From Candidatus Latescibacterota bacterium (lineage in GTDB: Bacteria > Latescibacterota > UBA2968 > UBA8231): a stretch of DNA of 64,000 nucleotides. The stretch is from positions 3,936,001-4,000,000 of the forward strand of contig OY730476.1 of assembly GCA_963422735.1 (NCBI GenBank), read 5' to 3'. The notes under the pieces are model-generated. The model saw only the letters and a list, made by a program, of their open reading frames with translations, had not been told where the DNA came from and did no database searches. Position 1 is the stretch's first letter, and each line of letters begins with the position of its first letter. Position numbers and translations under genes: made by a program. This document shows positions 1 to 8,817 of this stretch, one piece after another.

Positions 1-420
1 AGCACTCGCCGGGTGGAAGCTGCGATGGATGCGGTCACCGAAGAAGGAATCCAAGGTCAGTTGCGCCGCCCGGCGCGGTCCCAGAACGTAACCTATGCAG
101 ATGTGGCACTTATGGCTTGGCACTTTGAGGTAAACTATGCAGCGGCGGTGTGGCGGCTGCGCGGCTTGAATCTCGTCAGCCAAGAACATGCCCAGACGCT
201 TCTCGGGCAGACTGAAGAGGCCAAGTGCTATCTCCGCGCTGTATCGGATGTCGAGGATTCCGCAGACGGCGCCCATTGGGAGCACGAGTTGAATTGGCAG
301 ATTCTATCGCTGGCTTTGGAGGCGCGGTGGCGCGGGGAGATTTCGCAGGGTCGTCTGTTGGAAGTGGGGCAGCTGTTGGGCATTGACGACGAGACGCTTC
401 TCGACTTAGCTGAATGCTGA
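1..420 (+). CDS. C-terminal part of an ImmA/IrrE-family (XRE-HTH + Zn-peptidase) protein, cut by the window edge
   Basis: 'MAWHFEVNYAAAVWRLRGLNLVS' and 'GEISQGRLLEVGQLLGID' resemble ImmA/IrrE C-termini; followed by a PIN gene, a common pairing. Confidence 0.6.
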   Translation, partial: STRRVEAAMDAVTEEGIQGQLRRPARSQNVTYADVALMAWHFEVNYAAAVWRLRGLNLVSQEHAQTLLGQTEEAKCYLRAVSDVEDSADGAHWEHELNWQILSLALEARWRGEISQGRLLEVGQLLGIDDETLLDLAEC

Positions 421-483
421 ATTGGCTTCGACGACTCGATTGAGCTCAGCCGAAACGCAAGTGGCCTTCCTTGGATTCTGTAA

Positions 484-996
484 ATGCAGCAGAAAGATCC
501 AACGCCGATTGTTATTGATGCTTCGGTCCTGCTGAATTTCGTGAAAATTGGTCGTGTTGAGTTGCTTAGTCATCTCGGCCCAGCGGTCGTGTTGCCCGAC
601 CAAGTGCTCGATGAAATAAGGCGTCCAGAATAAAAGAAGGCGGTCGAAGATGCTGTGGCAGCGGGCATACTTGACTTACAAAGCGTTGACGGCCTAGCGG
701 AAGTTGCTCTATTCGCCAAACTTCAAGCAGACGGCCGGCTTGGTGCAGGCGAGTGCGATGTCCTCGCCGTTGCACTCATGCAGGGTTGGGTCGCCGGGCT
801 TCAGGACCGCAGGGCGCGAGTTGAAGGGCAACGCCGGCGTAGAGACTTGGTAATCTATCAGACGGAGGACTTGGTGCTGAAGTTGATCGAGAATGAAACC
901 TTGACCGTTGAAGAAGCTGACGGGTTTCTCTCTGAGTGGGCGGCGAATCACCAGAAGGAGAGTTTAAACAATAGAAAGATAACAAGTTGGCTATAA
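484..996 (+). pseudogene. PIN-domain ribonuclease with premature stop
   Basis: ATG 484 reads 'IVIDASVLLNF...VLDEIRRPE', then TAA at 631-633; the same frame continues 'LGAGECDVLAVA...LQDRRAR' (PIN acidic motifs). Confidence 0.75.
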
Positions 997-1049
997 AGAC
1001 TATAGTTCGTTTCGGGCTGAACAGGATAGACTTGCCGAATATTGTGGCT

Positions 1050-1664
1050 GCTCCACCGATGCTCAATACACGCGGCATGTCCATCGCCGCGCTGATGCGT
1101 TGCAAGTTCCTCCTCGCCAAGAAAATCGGAAACAAGATCGCCGCCATTCGCCAAGAGGAACGAAGCAGCGTCTATCAGCAGTACCTCTTGGTGCCCGAAG
1201 CCAACACAGCGGTCTCTTTCGACATGGCTTTCGCGTTTACGGGCAACATGTACTGGGATCAAAAGCACTATCGCGGGCGCTGGAAACCGGGCAAGCACTT
1301 CTTAGGCCCGGATCGCGTTCCCGCCTTTGACGGCGCGGAAATGTGATGCGCTCGGGTCATTGATAGTCTGGCGGCCGTGCAGTACTGGATTCGCAATGTA
1401 GCGCGCCATCCCAACTCGTTTTGGCTGCCCACCGCAACGGACAAATTCTACCCGGACTTTGTCGCCTTGCTAAACGACGGTCGTCTCCTCGTTGTCGAAT
1501 ACAAGGGCGCACATCTCGCCGAAGGGACTGATACCAACGAAAAGCGGACTATTGGTGCCCTTTGGGAGCGAGAGAGCAAAGGCATGGGCTTCTTCATCAT
1601 CGCGGAGAAAATGGTCCATGGGAAGGACGTGTGGCAGCAATTAGAAGAGAAAATCGGAATTTGA
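1050..1664 (+). pseudogene. C-terminal remnant of a type III restriction enzyme Res subunit
   Basis: 'YWIRNVARHPNSFWLPTATDKFYPDFVA...LVVEYKG' PD-(D/E)xK tail; in-frame TGA at 1344-1346; no helicase domain; 5' boundary approximate. Confidence 0.75.
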
Positions 1665-1760
1665 AATATGTTTCCGGCGGACGATTTGAAGTTTGCGAGA
1701 GCGAGACGCCCACGCTCTCAGAGGCGTTGATATCTCAAGCAGTTTGGTCCTTTTCTGGAT

Positions 1761-1827
1761 GTCATGCCTAAAAGCCTGCGCCCGTGAAAACGGGTGGCGC
1801 GGTGAAGCCCGCCTACGCGGGAATGAC
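1761..1827. repeat. Degenerate dRS3/REP-like palindromic element
   Basis: GTCAT at 1761 ... CCCGCCTACGCGGGAATGAC at 1808-1827. Confidence 0.4.
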
Positions 1828-1944
1828 AGCGCGGGCCGTCGTTCAAGATCAACCGAAAGCAAAATGAGTTTTGAAAACGCTTCTTAGGAGGGATGTTCAC
1901 CGCTTCACCCTCTTCACTGCTGTACCTCGTTTTCGGATGCGTAG

Positions 1945-3222
1945 ATGAGCTATGCCCAGCTAACCCGCTTCATGTTGCCCCTAGTGGTGACGGCGCTGGT
2001 GCAAGAGCTTAGTGGCCAGTTCCTCAACGGCGGCATGGCGCGCATGCCGCGGGCAGTCGAAACGCTGGCTGCCTTCGGCTTGGCCTTTGGCTTGGCTGTC
2101 TTCCTCGCCGGCACCTTATCCCAGGTGCGGCAGCTCGGCTTGGTCCTCGTCGAGCACACCCAAGGCTACCGAGTCTGCTCCCGCTTTGTGCTCGCCGCCG
2201 GGCTGCTGTTGGCCGGCATCTTGGCCAGCTTGGCGCTGACGCCTTTGGGGACTTGGATTATCAACGACCTGCACGGGGTTGATCCCGCACTCGGCGACGC
2301 GGTGCGCTTGGCCCTGCTGTGGCTCGTCCCCTACCCCGTCCTGCAGGGGATGACGCGCTTTTACAGCGGCGAACTCATCCGCGTTCGCCGCACCGACGTC
2401 CCCGCCTATGCCACCACCACTGGGATCGTCCTCAGCATCCTCGCGGTCTTTGCCCTGCTGCCGCTTGGCTTTGTCCGCCAGACCCCCATCTTACTGCCGG
2501 TCTTAGCCACGTACACAGGTGCCCTTACCGAGCTTTGCGTGGTCGCGTGGGGCCGCTGGCGCTTAGTGCGCCGGCCCGCACAAGCCACTGCACCGGCCCT
2601 GACCTACTTCTACGTCCTGCGCTTTTTCTGGCCCTTGGCGCTAATCATGGCCGTGCAGGCTGGTACCCGGCCGCTGATCAACATGTTCGTCGCCCGCAGC
2701 ATCGACGGCACCCAAGCGCTGGCCGTGCTGACCATCGTCTATGCGCTCGGCCACATCCCCTATGGCTGGCTCAACGAACTGCGCAACCTGCCGACGGCCT
2801 TCCGCCAAGAAGGGGACTTGGCCAAGATTCGCCGCTTCTGCTTGGGCTGTTGTCTGTTTTCCTGTGCGTGGATGGCGGCCCTGTTTTGGACGCCGGCTGT
2901 CAATTACATACTCGGCACTTGGATCGGCATCGGCTCCGAGTTGATCGCCGACTGCAAGACGCCCCTGCTCCTCTTTACGGGCTTTCCTTTTGTCGTCAGC
3001 CTGCGCAGCTACTTCCACGGCATTGGTCTACTCCAGCACCGCACCCAAGCTATGGCACCGAGTGCCCCGTCGCGGGTAGCGACCGTCTTGCTGATGCTGG
3101 GTCTGCTTTCCAACTTCGATCTCCACGGCGCAACCCAAGCCGTGGGTGCCTTAATCAGCGGCCACACCGTAGAGGCCCTAGTCGTCTGGTGGAGCATCGG
3201 GCGCGGTCGGCGAGCCTCTTGA
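1945..3222 (+). CDS. ANKH-like (MATE/MOP superfamily) membrane transporter
   Basis: Multi-TM 425 aa; 'FFWPLALIMAVQAGTRPLINMFVAR' and 'YALGHIPYGWLNELR' match ANKH motifs as recalled. Confidence 0.75.
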   Translation: MSYAQLTRFMLPLVVTALVQELSGQFLNGGMARMPRAVETLAAFGLAFGLAVFLAGTLSQVRQLGLVLVEHTQGYRVCSRFVLAAGLLLAGILASLALTPLGTWIINDLHGVDPALGDAVRLALLWLVPYPVLQGMTRFYSGELIRVRRTDVPAYATTTGIVLSILAVFALLPLGFVRQTPILLPVLATYTGALTELCVVAWGRWRLVRRPAQATAPALTYFYVLRFFWPLALIMAVQAGTRPLINMFVARSIDGTQALAVLTIVYALGHIPYGWLNELRNLPTAFRQEGDLAKIRRFCLGCCLFSCAWMAALFWTPAVNYILGTWIGIGSELIADCKTPLLLFTGFPFVVSLRSYFHGIGLLQHRTQAMAPSAPSRVATVLLMLGLLSNFDLHGATQAVGALISGHTVEALVVWWSIGRGRRAS

Positions 3223-3342: not shown

Positions 3343-4983
3343 ATGAACGGCAACCAAGCCATTGCTCACATCCTCAAGGCCGAAGGCATCGCGTGGCTGT
3401 CGGCTTTTCCCGCCCAGTCGCTGATTGACGAGGCGGCACGCGCTGGGATCCGGCCCGTTATCTGCCGCCAAGAGCGGACGGGCGTCAACATGGCCGACGG
3501 CTTCAGCCGCACGACCAATGGCCGCCCCTTTGGCGTCTTCACCATGCAGACCGGGCCGGGGGCTGAAAACGCGCTCGGCGGCGTGGCCCAGGCCTACGCC
3601 GATTCCATCCCGGTGTTGCTCCTGCCCGGCGGCGTGTTCACGGCCCGCACGCAAGTGCCGCCCAACTTCGACGCGGTGCCCAACTACCGAGGCATCACCA
3701 AATGGGCTGCCAACATCAACCAAGTCGAACGCATTCCCGAGCTGATGCGCCGCGCCTTCAGCCAGCTCGTCCACGGTCGCCTCGGGCCGGTGCTCTTGGA
3801 AATCCCCAGCGACTTGGCCACCGCTGAGCTCCCAGACGACGCCCTCGACTATCAACCGGTCAAAGCCTACAAGTCGGGGGCCGACCCAGACGCGGTCCGC
3901 GATTTGGTTGCCGCGCTCGTCAAGGCCGAATGCCCGGTCGTCAACGCGGGGCACGGCGTACTGTGGGCCGAAGCCACGGACCTGCTCGTAGCCCTCGCCG
4001 AGCTGCTCAACGCGCCCGTTATGACCACCTTGGCTGGCAAGAGCGCGTTTCCCGAAAACCATCCACTCGCGCTGGGCACCGGCGGTCACACTGGCACGCT
4101 GATGGTCGATCGCTTCCTGCAAAAGACCGATTTCGTCTTGGGCGTGGGCACCAGCTTTACCATCTCGGCCTTCAATGCCCCCATGCCCGACCGCGCCGTC
4201 TTGGCGCAGGTGACCAACTGCGCGGAGGATCTCAACAAAGACTACCGAATCGACTTGGGGGTCATCGGCGATGCGCGGATCGTGCTGGAACAGATCATCG
4301 AGGAAGTCCGTCGGCAGCTTGGGGCCGACGGGCGCGCCGACGGGCGCGGGACTGCGGCCGAGATTGCGGCCATCCGCGCTGAATTCAACGCCGCGTGGGC
4401 TCCGAGATTCCGCTCGGACGAGGTGCCGATAAACCCCTACCGGGTCTTCGCCGAGCTCGCCCGCGCCGTGGATGTGCCCAACACCATCATCACCCACGAC
4501 TCGGGCTATCCCCGCGATCAGCTCGTGCCGTTCTGGCGGCCTCAAATCCCCAGAGGGTACATCGGCTGGGGCAAATCGACCCAACTCGGCTACGGCTTGG
4601 GTTTGGCATTAGGGGCCAAGTTAGCCGCGCCGGACAAGCAGATCATCAACATCATGGGCGACGCGGCTTTTGGCATGGCGGGTCTCGACATCGAGACCGC
4701 GGTGCGCGCAGAAATTCCCATTCTCACGGTGGTGCTCAACAACGGCGTGATGACCCACTACGACCAGCACATGCCCTACGCTAGCGAGCACTGGCAGAGC
4801 AACCAGCTCGGCGGCCACTACGCACAGGTGGCCGAGGCCCTCGGTGCCCACGCCGAGCGCGTCGAATCGCCCCCGGACTTGGCACCGGCCATCCAACGTG
4901 CGCTCGTGGCCAACCGCGAAGGCCGCGCCGCTCTAGTGGAAGTAATGACTAAGGCGGAAGAAAACATCGCCAAATTTTGGTAA
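3343..4983 (+). CDS. Thiamine-pyrophosphate-dependent enzyme (acetolactate synthase-like)
   Basis: 'RQERTGVNMADG', 'GPGAEN', TPP motif 'GDAAF...LNNG'. Confidence 0.9.
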   Translation: MNGNQAIAHILKAEGIAWLSAFPAQSLIDEAARAGIRPVICRQERTGVNMADGFSRTTNGRPFGVFTMQTGPGAENALGGVAQAYADSIPVLLLPGGVFTARTQVPPNFDAVPNYRGITKWAANINQVERIPELMRRAFSQLVHGRLGPVLLEIPSDLATAELPDDALDYQPVKAYKSGADPDAVRDLVAALVKAECPVVNAGHGVLWAEATDLLVALAELLNAPVMTTLAGKSAFPENHPLALGTGGHTGTLMVDRFLQKTDFVLGVGTSFTISAFNAPMPDRAVLAQVTNCAEDLNKDYRIDLGVIGDARIVLEQIIEEVRRQLGADGRADGRGTAAEIAAIRAEFNAAWAPRFRSDEVPINPYRVFAELARAVDVPNTIITHDSGYPRDQLVPFWRPQIPRGYIGWGKSTQLGYGLGLALGAKLAAPDKQIINIMGDAAFGMAGLDIETAVRAEIPILTVVLNNGVMTHYDQHMPYASEHWQSNQLGGHYAQVAEALGAHAERVESPPDLAPAIQRALVANREGRAALVEVMTKAEENIAKFW

Positions 4984-4993
4984 GGAGGAGAAA

Positions 4994-6076
4994 ATGAACC
5001 CATACAAAGCCGTTCTCATCGGCTGCAGCCGCATGGGTGCTTTTATCGACAACGAGGTTCCTGCCGATATGCGCCCGTACTCCCACGCCGCCGGGTACGA
5101 GGCTTGTGAGCGTACGGACCTTATCGCCTGCTCGGACCTGCGCCCCGAGGTGATGGGAAGGGTCGGCAAGCGCTACGGCATCCCCGCGGACAAGCAATAC
5201 ACCGACCATCGAGAGATGCTCGTGCGCGAAAAGCCGGACATCGTCAGCGTCGCCACCCAGCCCGAGCACCGCGCCGAAATCGTCATCGCAGCGACCGAAG
5301 CAGGTGCCCGCGCCATCTACGCGGAAAAGGCGTTCTCGGCCTCGCTAGAGGAAGCCGATCGCATGGTCGCAGCCTGCCAGCGCCACAACGTCGTGCTCAA
5401 CATGGGCACCAATCGCCGCTTCCACCCCGGCTACGACCAAATGAAGGCCGTCATCGACTCCGGGAGAATTGGTGCGTTGCAAACCCTCATCATCCACCAG
5501 ACCAGTGCGCTCTTCAACGGTGCCAGCCACAGCTTTGACCTGCTCCAGCGTCTCAACTCCGACGCCCCTGCCGCTTGGGTGCAAGCGCATTTGCCCAATG
5601 GCGACGAGATCATCGACGGCGATGTCCTGCGCGAGGACCCGGTCGGGCACGGCATCATCCAGTTCGCCAACGGGGTCACCGCGTACGCGCTCAATTCGGG
5701 TCGGGGATTGGAAGTGGAGGCCGTCTGCGAAAAGGGCGTGGTGACGGCACTGGGCACTGATAAAGAGTGGCAGTTGCGGGCACCGGTAGCACGCGATCAC
5801 CGGGGCCGCGATACATTGGGTTTGGTGGAATTTCCCTCTTTCGAGCACCGGGCTTCGACGCTCTGTCTAATCGAGGATCTGGTCCGCGCACTCGATACGG
5901 GCGAGCCTCCGCGCGGCGGTGCCGAGCTAGCACGGGCCAATACCGAGCTAATTTTCGCATTTGTCGAGTCGCACCAACGCGGCGGTGCTCGCGTAGAGTT
6001 GCCGCTTGCCGGGAGCAAGTATCGGCTGGCGCGGGATCGCGCGCCGCGGCAGCCTAAGTACGAGGCGGGCGTTTGA
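4994..6076 (+). CDS. Gfo/Idh/MocA-family oxidoreductase
   Basis: 'LIGCSRMG', 'YAEKA', 'NRRFHP'; AGGAGG RBS upstream. Confidence 0.85.
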   Translation: MNPYKAVLIGCSRMGAFIDNEVPADMRPYSHAAGYEACERTDLIACSDLRPEVMGRVGKRYGIPADKQYTDHREMLVREKPDIVSVATQPEHRAEIVIAATEAGARAIYAEKAFSASLEEADRMVAACQRHNVVLNMGTNRRFHPGYDQMKAVIDSGRIGALQTLIIHQTSALFNGASHSFDLLQRLNSDAPAAWVQAHLPNGDEIIDGDVLREDPVGHGIIQFANGVTAYALNSGRGLEVEAVCEKGVVTALGTDKEWQLRAPVARDHRGRDTLGLVEFPSFEHRASTLCLIEDLVRALDTGEPPRGGAELARANTELIFAFVESHQRGGARVELPLAGSKYRLARDRAPRQPKYEAGV

Positions 6077-6222: not shown

Positions 6223-6714
6223 TCATTGCTCTAACTTTACGGTCAATGACCGGGTGCGTTGAGCAATGGTCTTGGATTCGTCGAGTTCGCCATCTCCAAC
6301 GTTCAACTCCTGAAATCGCCGCATAGGGGGCAAGACTCTGCGCTCCAGCGAACCGATGGGCCGATTGTAACTCTCAATAGTCTGATCGATACGCCACCTC
6401 AAATTGTTGAGGTGGCGAAAGAATGGTTCCATGCGCTGGTAGAGCTCTTTGCTCGTAGCTGCTATTTGACGTGCATTTTTAGACACCGCTTGTTGTTGCC
6501 ATTCATAAGCAACAGCCTTCAAGAGTGCCAAAAGCGTCACAGGTGTCGCTATCAGTACCTTACTTTTCAAGGCATCGTCTAACAAATTTGGCTCTTCTAT
6601 AAATGCCGCCTCAACACTGGCTTCGACTGGCACAAACATGACGACAAACTCCGGAGCCTTTTCGAATTGCGCCCAGTAGGCTTTTTGTTCCAATTCGCGC
6701 ACCCGATTATGCAC
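6223..6714 (-). pseudogene. rmuC: C-terminal fragment of DNA recombination protein RmuC
   Basis: 'PEFVVMFVPVE...VLIATPVTLLALLKAVAYEWQQ...GSLERRVLP'; N-terminal coiled-coil part missing. Confidence 0.8.
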
Positions 6715-7140
6715 TATGCGAGAACAGCGGCAGTAGTGCTGCGCCCAACGCCACCCTTGACCGAGAACAACGTGTAGCGCATCGGCGTCCTTTGCGGGTC
6801 TGAATCGCCGACTGTCCACCAATCGCGGCTGGTTACTAGACGATCGACCCAATACACGCCGGGAAGAATCTCTTGCGCCATGTCGTTGAGTGCTTTCAGC
6901 ATGGCGTCATCCACGAACAGAACGGCCTCTTCGGCAGGGTAGCCATGTTTGCCGAGCGTTTTGTGTAGGCCAGCGGCGAGGCGTTGCAGCGTACTATCCT
7001 CTTGAACTGCGTCCGACACCAATATACGCACCCTTCCGAACAAATCTCGCGCCAAGTAGATGGAAGTAGTCTCGTCGGGAATTGCCTCGCTTTTGAGCAT
7101 ATCGGTCACGCGCTGCTGCATGGCATCGAAGGAAACGAAG
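6714..7140 (-). pseudogene. N-terminal fragment of a KGGVGR-motif ParA-like ATPase
   Basis: 'RDLFGRVRILV' and 'LFSVKGGVGRSTTAAVLA', then TAG immediately after the Walker A. Confidence 0.75.
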
Positions 7141-7518
7141 TAGCCATCCTGTTCTGCGCGTTGAACCATATAATAAACCGTACAAGCTGCTTTGCGATGC
7201 GGCTCCACGTCTGCTCTTTGGAAATGGCATCCACGGGCATAGCGGTTGTGATGCGACCAGTTATGGAACGGGTCGCCGTTCGGGATTTGACTCAGGTACT
7301 GCGATCCATTCCTACCGTTGACGAAGCTCTTGAAGATCAGCCACAGCTTCTTCACATGATTTTGGTGCTGTTCATCAGTCGGTTTTCCATCCGATTCGAC
7401 AGACATCCCAAGGGCCTTCATCACCGCCTTGCTGAACCCGTATAACTGATCGGCGTTTGCACAGCGACTCTGGTCGGAGAGTAGCTCCGCGTCTTGCCAG
7501 TGGCGTCGGCAGGATGTA
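7141..7518 (-). pseudogene. HEPN-like protein remnant, in frame with the ATPase fragment
   Basis: 'RRHWQDAELL...ANADQLYGFS(gap)KAVM...PFHNWSHHNRY'; no start codon seen after the PhyH stop. Confidence 0.55.
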
Positions 7519-8817
7519 TCACTGTCGGGTTTCACCGTTATCTGACCGCGCCCAAGTAGCCACAAATTTGTCCACGCCAAAGCCTTCGGGCATCTCGCTG
7601 TTAAAGGTGCGCAGCGGCCGAGATTCAAAGTTCGGCGGGTCGGCTGCGGGCCGGAGGGCTGTGTATATATTGCTGTAATGTTGGTGGACGCGAGCCTCGT
7701 CTTGCTGCAATTGCTCGTTGAGTGCGGCAAAGCGGGTTTGCAGGGCCGTGGCCTCAGCAGCGGTGAAGCGCTGCGCCATATCCTCGGCGTAGTATGCAGG
7801 CGGCGATCCGTCGATCAGTGGCTGGCGCTCTTGCATGGACATTTGGGCGATCTCCGGCCGATGCAGGAGGACGACCTTGTTGGCGATCCGGCACAACAGC
7901 ACCACGCTCACCATGCGGCCGAACTCGCCCGGGTGCAGCTCGGCCAAGCAATGGCGGAACTTTTGCTCGTCGCTGGCAATCAGCGCGCAGAAGGTCTCCT
8001 CAATCTGGTCGCGCTCCTGATCGTAGTACTTGGCCCAGTGGGCAAAATGGGCCTCGGCCGCGGACGGGATGTATTGCCGGAAGCCATCGGTGTGATACCA
8101 GTCGAGATGGTGGTGATACGAGAGAATCTGGCCGCCGAAGGAGCGATAGCCGAGGTGGATGGTGCGGCGTAGCTGGCTGGTGTACTTGCTGCCCCAGTGC
8201 ATCATCAGGTTGGGATAGACGATCCCGTCGCCGGGCTGTAGCTCGACGGGGATTCCGCCTTCTAGCGGTGCTTTTGGGTCCAGCATGAGCTGCCGCCGCT
8301 GCGCTTCGTTGGTCGGCTGCTTGTGACTGGTGGGCAGGATCCAGAATACGTCGTCTTCGTAGAGCGCGATGTTCCACTGCACATATCCTGGGGCGTTGGC
8401 CATTAGATCCGCTTGCATGCCGCTGAGCGGTGCCTGCTCAGCCGAGCTCGCGTCGCGGTGCCAGTCCGTGTACCCATAATCGATCAGCCCGCTGCACAGC
8501 GCACCAAAGGCGGTGAGGGCCGTCACCGGAGCCTGCATGAGCTGGGCACTGACGCCGAAGGTGGTCTCGCCGAGACAAAAGTCGATGACATCGGCGGTCT
8601 CGGTGCCAATCGAATTCATGTTCAGCCGCGGATGGATGCTCTCGTACCAAGTACTGCCGAGCGGCTCGCCGGGTTGGTGCGCGGCTGCCGAGCATGCCTT
8701 TTCCTGGTCCACCATCCACTCGATGGCGAGCCGCATCGCGCCCAACCGCTCGGGCGGCACGACGTTGCGCAAGATCAGATAGCCTTTGCGGCGGAATTGT
8801 TGCAGATCGACTTGCAT
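7519..8817 (-). CDS. Phytanoyl-CoA dioxygenase (PhyH) family protein
   Basis: 'FRRKGYLILRNVV', 'WHRD', 'LPTSH', 'MHWGS'. Confidence 0.85.
   Translation of the reverse strand: MQVDLQQFRRKGYLILRNVVPPERLGAMRLAIEWMVDQEKACSAAAHQPGEPLGSTWYESIHPRLNMNSIGTETADVIDFCLGETTFGVSAQLMQAPVTALTAFGALCSGLIDYGYTDWHRDASSAEQAPLSGMQADLMANAPGYVQWNIALYEDDVFWILPTSHKQPTNEAQRRQLMLDPKAPLEGGIPVELQPGDGIVYPNLMMHWGSKYTSQLRRTIHLGYRSFGGQILSYHHHLDWYHTDGFRQYIPSAAEAHFAHWAKYYDQERDQIEETFCALIASDEQKFRHCLAELHPGEFGRMVSVVLLCRIANKVVLLHRPEIAQMSMQERQPLIDGSPPAYYAEDMAQRFTAAEATALQTRFAALNEQLQQDEARVHQHYSNIYTALRPAADPPNFESRPLRTFNSEMPEGFGVDKFVATWARSDNGETRQ

Follow-up and report, generated by a model that had tools for sequence, protein, structure and literature searches.

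Tissue mineralisation in animals is controlled by ANKH, a membrane protein that releases citrate and ATP. The protein also underlies two disorders, craniometaphyseal dysplasia and calcium pyrophosphate deposition disease. In TCDB, bacterial members are listed under 2.A.66.9. The available text of PMC9333335 lists ANKH as SLC62A1, TC 2.A.66.9, with a MATE fold. Release of citrate, malate, succinate and NTPs by human ANKH is reported in the accessible part of PMC7371198, and loss of the release activity in the L244S variant in that of a preprint (bioRxiv 10.1101/2021.08.27.457978). The structure-function relations of ANKH are 'poorly defined' according to the available sections of a 2026 review (PMC13356900), which also list the human disease positions. 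Among MATE-fold transporters, the Na+ and H+ coupling of NorM-VC depends on residues D36, E255 and D371 (available text of PMC8113278), and the citrate exporter HvAACT1 carries basic residues in its C-lobe cavity, one of them on helix 7 (available text of PMC12358922). Bacteria are not mentioned in the accessible sections of the 2026 review or of a zebrafish phylogeny paper (PMC11417794). In the same sections, the latter treats vertebrates and found no invertebrate Ankh in Ensembl. Among the papers listed by literature searches, with subscription journals and TCDB pages outside their coverage, none dealt with a bacterial ANKH.

An ANKH-like gene is present in the window, the whole stretch of 64,000 nucleotides analysed here. 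It is single-copy in the source genome and forms an open frame from an ATG start to a TGA stop (Table 1). A first-pass annotation had singled out three motifs of its product as parallel to stretches of human ANKH that it quoted. These motifs were found, starting at residues 39, 226 and 260 (window 2059, 2620 and 2722), and the likeness is real: the protein scored 174.2 bits with the Pfam ANKH model PF07260 (E 5.8e-51; residues 2-294 on model positions 9-311 of 344; gathering cut-off of 22 bits), more than the protein of the choanoflagellate Monosiga (166.6 bits). The comparison of Pfam ANKH and MATE models suggested by the same annotation favored ANKH, since no other family, MatE included, matched the 425-aa protein at E ≤ 0.1. 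Pfam MurJ and Polysacc_synt gave no match, and no NCBIfam family was assigned.

Table 1. Coordinates of the ANKH-family gene, its motifs, its neighbors and the upstream inserts.
Feature	Position	Strand	Description
Right part of 2,944-bp insert	1..1944	.	End of HTH-IrrE gene (1-420); type III restriction-subunit remnant (1059-1655)
ANKH-family (PF07260) MOP-fold transporter gene	1945..3222	+	425 aa; 12 predicted membrane helices, two six-helix repeats
Helix 2 start motif	2059..2088	+	Residues 39-48; T40 at human M48 position
Helix 7 motif	2620..2697	+	Residues 226-251; L231 (= L244, human numbering), Q238 (NorM E255 position), invariant R242, N246
Helix 8 motif	2722..2784	+	Residues 260-280; Y273, W275 (= W292), N277, E278, R280
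Helix 10-helix 11	2995..3075	+	Residues 351-377; V351 (NorM D371 position), invariant R354, G359 (= G389), invariant R377
Thiamine-pyrophosphate (TPP) enzyme	3343..4983	+	NCBIfam PRK06154, over cut-off; neighbor conserved within the genus only
Gfo/Idh/MocA oxidoreductase	4994..6076	+	Neighbor conserved within the genus only
Hotspot inserts	Window 1-1944 and G000:C1:3935001-3937944; L026, L027, L028, L030, L032, L035, L037, L038, L044 and L047 upstream of position 6001

Human ANKH was represented by P0144, an ANKHB from a sturgeon-named cluster, and comparisons with the human protein run through fish numbering. P0144 agreed with the human motifs quoted in the annotation at 25/26, 18/21 and 10/10 positions, and its numbering fits the human disease positions P5, M48, L244, C331, S375, F377 and G389 (7/7 checked). 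The motifs of the window protein were like those of P0144 at 15/26, 15/21 and 6/10 positions. The alignment of the two proteins comprised 435 columns, of which 145 were identical (33%; E 6e-72; residues 3-414 with 10-444), indicating that the resemblance is real and full-length. Disease positions L244, C331, F377 and G389 are identical, S375 and M48 are replaced by Thr, and P5 has no counterpart. W292, which we take to be another human disease position, is conserved as W275. Identity to animal ANKHs (P0144 and Sycon P0142) was 33-38% end to end, and the polar and basic residues of helices 7, 8, 10 and 11 are the same. The window protein differs from them by the lack of the acidic C-terminal tail (425 aa versus about 450-530). 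Its membership of the ANKH family is virtually certain.

The AlphaFold2 model of the protein (mean pLDDT of 94.7, pTM of 0.90) has the 12-helix, two-repeat MATE/MOP fold, and the Foldseek and VIA matches were all MOP proteins among the rows listed. An internal repeat is evident from the similarity between its N- and C-terminal halves (hhalign probability of 99.8). In the VIA comparison with human MATE1, 407 residues were aligned (Z 34.9, rmsd 3.0, 12% identity), and the MATE antiporters NorM-VC, PfMATE and human MATE1 together gave Z values of 34-35 and rmsd values of about 3 at 11-14% identity. The matches of the model to MATE, WzxE and MurJ structures agree with the listing of ANKH as a MATE-fold protein (PMC9333335). 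Sequence searches of solved structures returned one antibody chain with the window protein (E 0.093, a chance match), no relative with fish ANKH, nothing with profile A2 and a single chance row with profile A4.

The common fold raises the possibility of an ordinary MATE drug or cation antiporter that resembles ANKH by chance, and some databases do label members 'MATE family efflux transporter'. Profile-profile comparison of the ANKH-like and MATE alignments also indicated remote homology (probability of 97.8, E 1.2e-12, 14% identity). Single-sequence comparisons with MATEs were not significant, and a MATE profile was therefore needed. The window protein scored -6.6 bits against a profile built from 31 MATEs of its phylum. 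Against the profile of the group to which the window protein belongs, the same 31 MATEs scored at most 2.3 bits and the named eukaryotic ANKHs 329-390. BLASTP with a MATE of the source genome gave an E value of 0.21, versus 6e-72 with fish ANKH. These results, the lack of a MatE match and the absence of the NorM carboxylates render this explanation extremely improbable, and they refute it as far as ancestry is concerned. Thus, the protein is not a generic MATE: clustering with such proteins, far from ANKH, was not observed, and the protein grouped with eukaryotic ANKH.

NorM residues D36, E255 and D371 fall on L27, Q238 and V351 of the window protein, a mapping obtained by chaining two low-identity alignments (source-genome MATE with NorM-VC, then profile alignment), the register of which may be off by a residue or two. 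No acidic residue is present within two residues of L27, Q238 or V351. Conversely, R242, R280, R354 and R377 are occupied by Arg or Lys in 25/25 members of the close bacterial group, in 9-10 of 10 animal-type rows and in 12/12 protist-type rows, and Q238, N246, Y273, W275, N277 and E410 are also common to the window protein and the ANKH rows. The arginine set was also detected in the next two bacterial tiers (6/6 or 5/6; 14/14) and is mostly missing from the outermost one, with identity at R242 and at R377 in 2/14 rows. The set therefore predates the eukaryote-like group and is not its sole mark. More distant bacterial ANKH-domain proteins (Pfam scores mostly of 20-80 bits; Bacillota, Chloroflexota and others) share the Pfam family, the two-repeat layout and, in the nearer tiers, these four arginines. 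They differ by their position outside the clade formed by the close group and the eukaryotes and, mostly, by the lack of Q238 and C302 and, beyond the next tier, of W275 and Y273.

The N lobe is less similar to that of eukaryotic ANKH. Fish positions 31, 142 and 168 are acidic in 7, 9 and 10 of the 10 animal-type rows and in 10, 7 and 10 of the 12 protist-type rows, but in only 1, 5 and 2 of the 25 group members, the window protein having G24, Q134 and G160. From an N-lobe acid set that we defined ourselves (fish D28, E31, D142 and D168), it retains only E21 (= D28). Fish R204 is replaced by E196, at a position that is acidic in 22/25 group members. The missing acids and the Glu residue at the R204 position suggest that the substrate or the coupling may differ from that of ANKH. 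The missing acids weaken the notion that the protein works exactly like ANKH, not its assignment to the family. The protist ANKH-like proteins (Monosiga, Salpingoeca and Hartaetosiga; one MMETSP and one EukProt record), all uncharacterised, display 29-35% identity to the window protein by BLASTP and are about as near to fish ANKH (203-219 bits) as it is (222 bits), but they keep most of the N-lobe acidic residues. At T40 (window 2062-2064), the position of the M48T allele, Thr is present in 21/25 bacterial group members and 7/12 protist-type rows.

The proposed mechanism is that of an inner-membrane transporter that would operate by alternating access between its two six-helix lobes. R242 (helix 7), R354 (helix 10), R377 (helix 11) and R280 (end of helix 8), together with Q238, N246 and N277, would form a cationic pocket in the C lobe, and the helix register suggests that the arginines line the cavity. 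The ligand of the pocket may be a small polyanionic metabolite, with di- or tricarboxylates and phosphorylated compounds as the most likely candidates, and it would be released outward. Because the cation-coupling carboxylates of NorM are absent, the main driving forces of efflux would be the substrate gradient and the inside-negative potential, possibly supplemented by proton coupling via E21 or E410. The absence of these carboxylates and the four C-lobe basic residues common with animals suggest export of a polyanionic metabolite. As judged from the residues, a polyanion is a fairly likely substrate and, for a substrate of this type, export is the probable direction. The plant exporter HvAACT1 offers a parallel, with the same fold (Z 32.2, rmsd 3.6, 405 residues aligned) and C-lobe basic residues including one on helix 7. 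It is, however, a true MATE with N-lobe Asp pairs and 14% identity, likened to the window protein by region, not residue by residue.

Cationic cavities also mark lipid-linked-sugar flippases. A MurJ- or Wzx-like flippase for an anionic lipid-linked precursor would have the same fold (WzxE: Z 30.0, rmsd 3.6, 394 aligned; MurJ: Z 28.1, rmsd 3.5, 406 aligned), and the conserved basic residues would suit a pyrophosphoryl group. A search of the source genome for the MurJ family found one partial match only (32 bits). This activity is nonetheless very unlikely, since no glycosyltransferase or polysaccharide gene was detected among the recurring and adjacent neighbors scanned (24 + 24 proteins), the gene is patchy (67/132 class genomes) and the nearest characterised kin releases soluble anions.

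In the genus, the gene order is amidohydrolase, ANKH gene, TPP enzyme and Gfo/Idh/MocA dehydrogenase. In the source genome, the 2,944-bp insert parts the ANKH gene from the usual upstream amidohydrolase gene, the end of which is located 1 kb left of the window, and the insert ends at the start codon. Of the 24 close loci, 13 have an ANKH gene whose start codon overlaps the stop of the amidohydrolase gene, 10 have other genes directly upstream, and one is cut. Among those 10 loci, four have the amidohydrolase gene 1.6-3.2 kb away and six have type III restriction-modification genes; in these six, the amidohydrolase end was not found within the 6 kb upstream examined. Outside the genus, the ANKH-like gene follows aldolases, a GDSL hydrolase, an aminotransferase or other genes, and a survey of 40 genome loci and 80 metagenome loci revealed no partner gene common to the whole group. 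This loose catabolic setting is compatible with the export of acid products or with import. The neighbors are not conserved beyond the genus and the organism is full of catabolic genes, so the context offers no more than a weak clue.

A transporter encoded in a catabolic operon is usually an importer. The window protein could accordingly take up an anionic catabolic substrate, such as a sugar acid or an acylated amino acid, feeding the amidohydrolase, the TPP enzyme and the dehydrogenase. The overlap with the amidohydrolase stop and the TPP enzyme gene that follows fit this possibility, as do the aldolases (DHDPS or HpcH families) often encoded upstream in more distant loci. To our knowledge, characterised MOP-fold proteins are exporters or flippases. 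In addition, the uptake of anions requires coupling to a cation and the protein lacks the carboxylates of NorM, the neighbors vary from lineage to lineage, and ANKH mediates release (available text of PMC7371198). We therefore regard an importer as quite unlikely. In the export model, the job of the protein would be the venting of organic-acid products of the surrounding catabolic genes.

The amidohydrolase stop and the ANKH start codon meet at an insertion hotspot, occupied in 10/24 close loci and in the source genome. The cargo comprises type III restriction-modification, SMODS nucleotidyltransferase, TIR-like, AAA ATPase, IS transposase and HTH-IrrE genes, and it ends at or just before the ANKH start codon. 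In L027, a copy of the six overlap bases flanks the insert on each side; no such repeat is present in the source genome, and no integrase was seen in the insert of the window. The gene following HTH-IrrE (window 484-996, +) is broken by a stop near position 631 and is presumably a PIN-domain partner, with no such Pfam match. The sequence at 1059-1655 (+) is the C-terminal remnant of a type III restriction subunit, in two frames and 79% identical to the intact copy of L026. At about 1755-1830, a short repeated element with an inverted repeat is the only part of the region with which many contigs from other places align, and it is probably a REP-like extragenic repeat. Downstream from the dehydrogenase gene, a stretch of low GC (6223-7730, -) contains an RmuC fragment and a 338-aa frame ending in the start of a ParA-like ATPase, and is likely to be another decayed insert. 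A second recurring setting was observed in more distant relatives (L060, L082, L098, L099, L105-L107, L129 and others), with a divergent Omp85-family gene, a DHDPS-family aldolase, the ANKH-like gene, a GNAT acetyltransferase, an outer-membrane barrel and MlaE/ABC genes.

Codon-position identities to five close relatives were 0.93-0.95, 0.94-0.97 and 0.74-0.82 for the first, second and third positions, respectively, indicating purifying selection; a sixth row, L043, was left out because indels put it out of register. The GC3 of the ANKH gene (0.80) is similar to that of its two downstream neighbors (0.82 and 0.76). Native-like GC3 and variation mostly at third positions are indicative of an old, maintained gene. 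In a few relatives (G116:C3, G117:C1 and G152:C84; frames of 248-303 aa), the gene appears to be split or truncated, through either sequencing error or decay. Metatranscriptome contigs of relatives, about 90% alike over 1945-2415, were found in two libraries of one study; they may be DNA and are no proof of transcription.

To place the protein within the family, 1.84 billion cluster representatives were searched with phmmer, which returned 1,175 matches at E ≤ 0.001, including 67 at E ≤ 1e-30. Among the best 150 of the 1,175 matches, the close bacterial group came first, followed by eukaryotic ANKHs (Sycon, 1.5e-63; fish, 8.8e-59; Monosiga, 8.1e-54) and then by other bacterial-type proteins (best E 2e-44). 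Bacterial ANKH-domain proteins were already present in public clusters, and the rarity implied by the first-pass annotation was overstated. The trees were built from full-length rows, all gathered with the window protein as the query, leaving out fragments, the repeat-laden long isoforms P0148 and P0168 and most near-duplicates of the close group. The clade groups were defined once the first trees had been inspected, and the eukaryote-type and bacterial-type labels include several eukaryote-type and most outer bacterial-type rows devoid of an organism name. The close group and eukaryotic ANKH formed one clade in all four trees, with supports of 99 (fasttree, 115 rows), 96 (quick mixture model, 62 rows), 99/98 (careful LG+G4, 34 rows) and 100/99 (careful mixture model, 26 rows, named eukaryotes only). 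Four further bacterial-type lineages branched outside this clade in each tree. For 10/10 named eukaryotic queries, the best bacterial-type score fell in the close group and was about twice the best of the next tier.

Approximately unbiased (AU) tests were performed with LG+G4 on the 34-row set. Grouping of the eukaryotes with the next bacterial tier to the exclusion of the close group was rejected (p 0.005), as were grouping of the close group with the next tier (p 0.0002), with animals (p 0.0006) and with animals plus choanoflagellates (p 9e-6). These results indicate that the close group contains the nearest sampled bacterial kin of eukaryotic ANKH and did not obtain its gene from animals. 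Among the lineages sampled, the close bacterial group is very likely to be the nearest bacterial kin of eukaryotic ANKH. The tree check proposed in the first-pass annotation thus separated the window protein, together with eukaryotic ANKH, from the other sampled bacterial ANKH-like proteins, and this clade supports the proposed bearing on the origin of the family. The suggestion of a host-interaction factor was not supported, in view of the rejected grouping with animals, the native GC3 and the setting among catabolic genes. Host-to-symbiont transfer from animals is rejected by the same AU test.

The AU tests did not reject eukaryotes as a single clade (p 0.195) or a close group nested within eukaryotes with three long rows outside (p 0.283). 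The second topology would correspond to the reverse origin, in which the bacterial group took the gene from an early eukaryote (protist), possibly for host interaction. The base of the clade is an open polytomy when the long-branch eukaryote-type rows P0145, P0165 and P0189 are included, the eukaryotic status of P0165 and P0189 being assumed. A homologue search with P0165 returned only P0165 itself, and a profile built from 14 protist-type rows retrieved seven proteins and no new named eukaryote. With named rows only, the eukaryotes were monophyletic (82/93) above an unresolved grade formed by the bacterial group, a topology that fits a bacterial donor. The four successive bacterial lineages branching outside also favor a bacterial origin.

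The distribution of the gene bears on the same question. The close group belongs mostly to one Latescibacterota class and is rare in Chloroflexota, its named members including Anaerolineae and Caldilineaceae. The proportion of other genomes with a Pfam ANKH match fell from 29/30 in the genus to 56/75 in the family and 66/168 in the phylum (controls, 0/14), the 66 genomes all belonging to two families. The close-group profile matched 67 of 132 class genomes at E ≤ 1e-60, a few of these matches being more distant paralogues. In the phylum of a Caldilineaceae carrier, 30/401 genomes matched at all and 2/401 strongly. Searches of viral contigs gave 68 pattern matches, none of which was confirmed, and plasmids gave only two distant partial matches (22-24% identity). 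According to cluster matches, ANKH is carried by sponges, cnidarians, echinoderms, a brachiopod and choanoflagellates. The narrowness of the bacterial group would fit acquisition from a eukaryote, and Latescibacterota include sponge associates with eukaryote-like proteins, ANKH being unmentioned in the available text (PMC12993501). However, the rejected groupings with animals and choanoflagellates and the monophyly of the named eukaryotes argue against acquisition from a eukaryote, and the relative L054 has a groundwater record. We consider such an acquisition unlikely. In the history that we propose instead, the family would have diversified in bacteria before this lineage passed the gene to an early eukaryote.

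Taken together, these data add the window protein to a family already known and place it in the sampled bacterial group closest to eukaryotic ANKH. The best explanation as a whole, which we favor by a modest measure, is that of an ANKH-family alternating-access polyanion exporter of the lineage nearest to eukaryotic ANKH. The tree extends the history of ANKH beyond vertebrates to protists and a defined bacterial group. At 425 aa, this compact bacterial member retains the key residues of the C lobe and four disease positions, opening the substrate, the coupling and the mechanism to direct tests, and the predicted transporter is a possible simple laboratory stand-in for human ANKH. A bolder and doubtful proposal is that eukaryotic ANKH came from one narrow bacterial lineage, centred on the Latescibacterota class, via an early eukaryote, and that the bacterial proteins still export citrate and/or nucleotides by the same cationic C-lobe pocket. 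If it were true, the protein would be the first easily expressed ANKH for structure determination and reconstituted assays, the human loss-of-function alleles L244S, C331R and G389R could each be modelled at the equivalent residue, and the Thr of 21/25 bacterial members at this position would render the human gain-of-function substitution M48T a return to the ancestral state.
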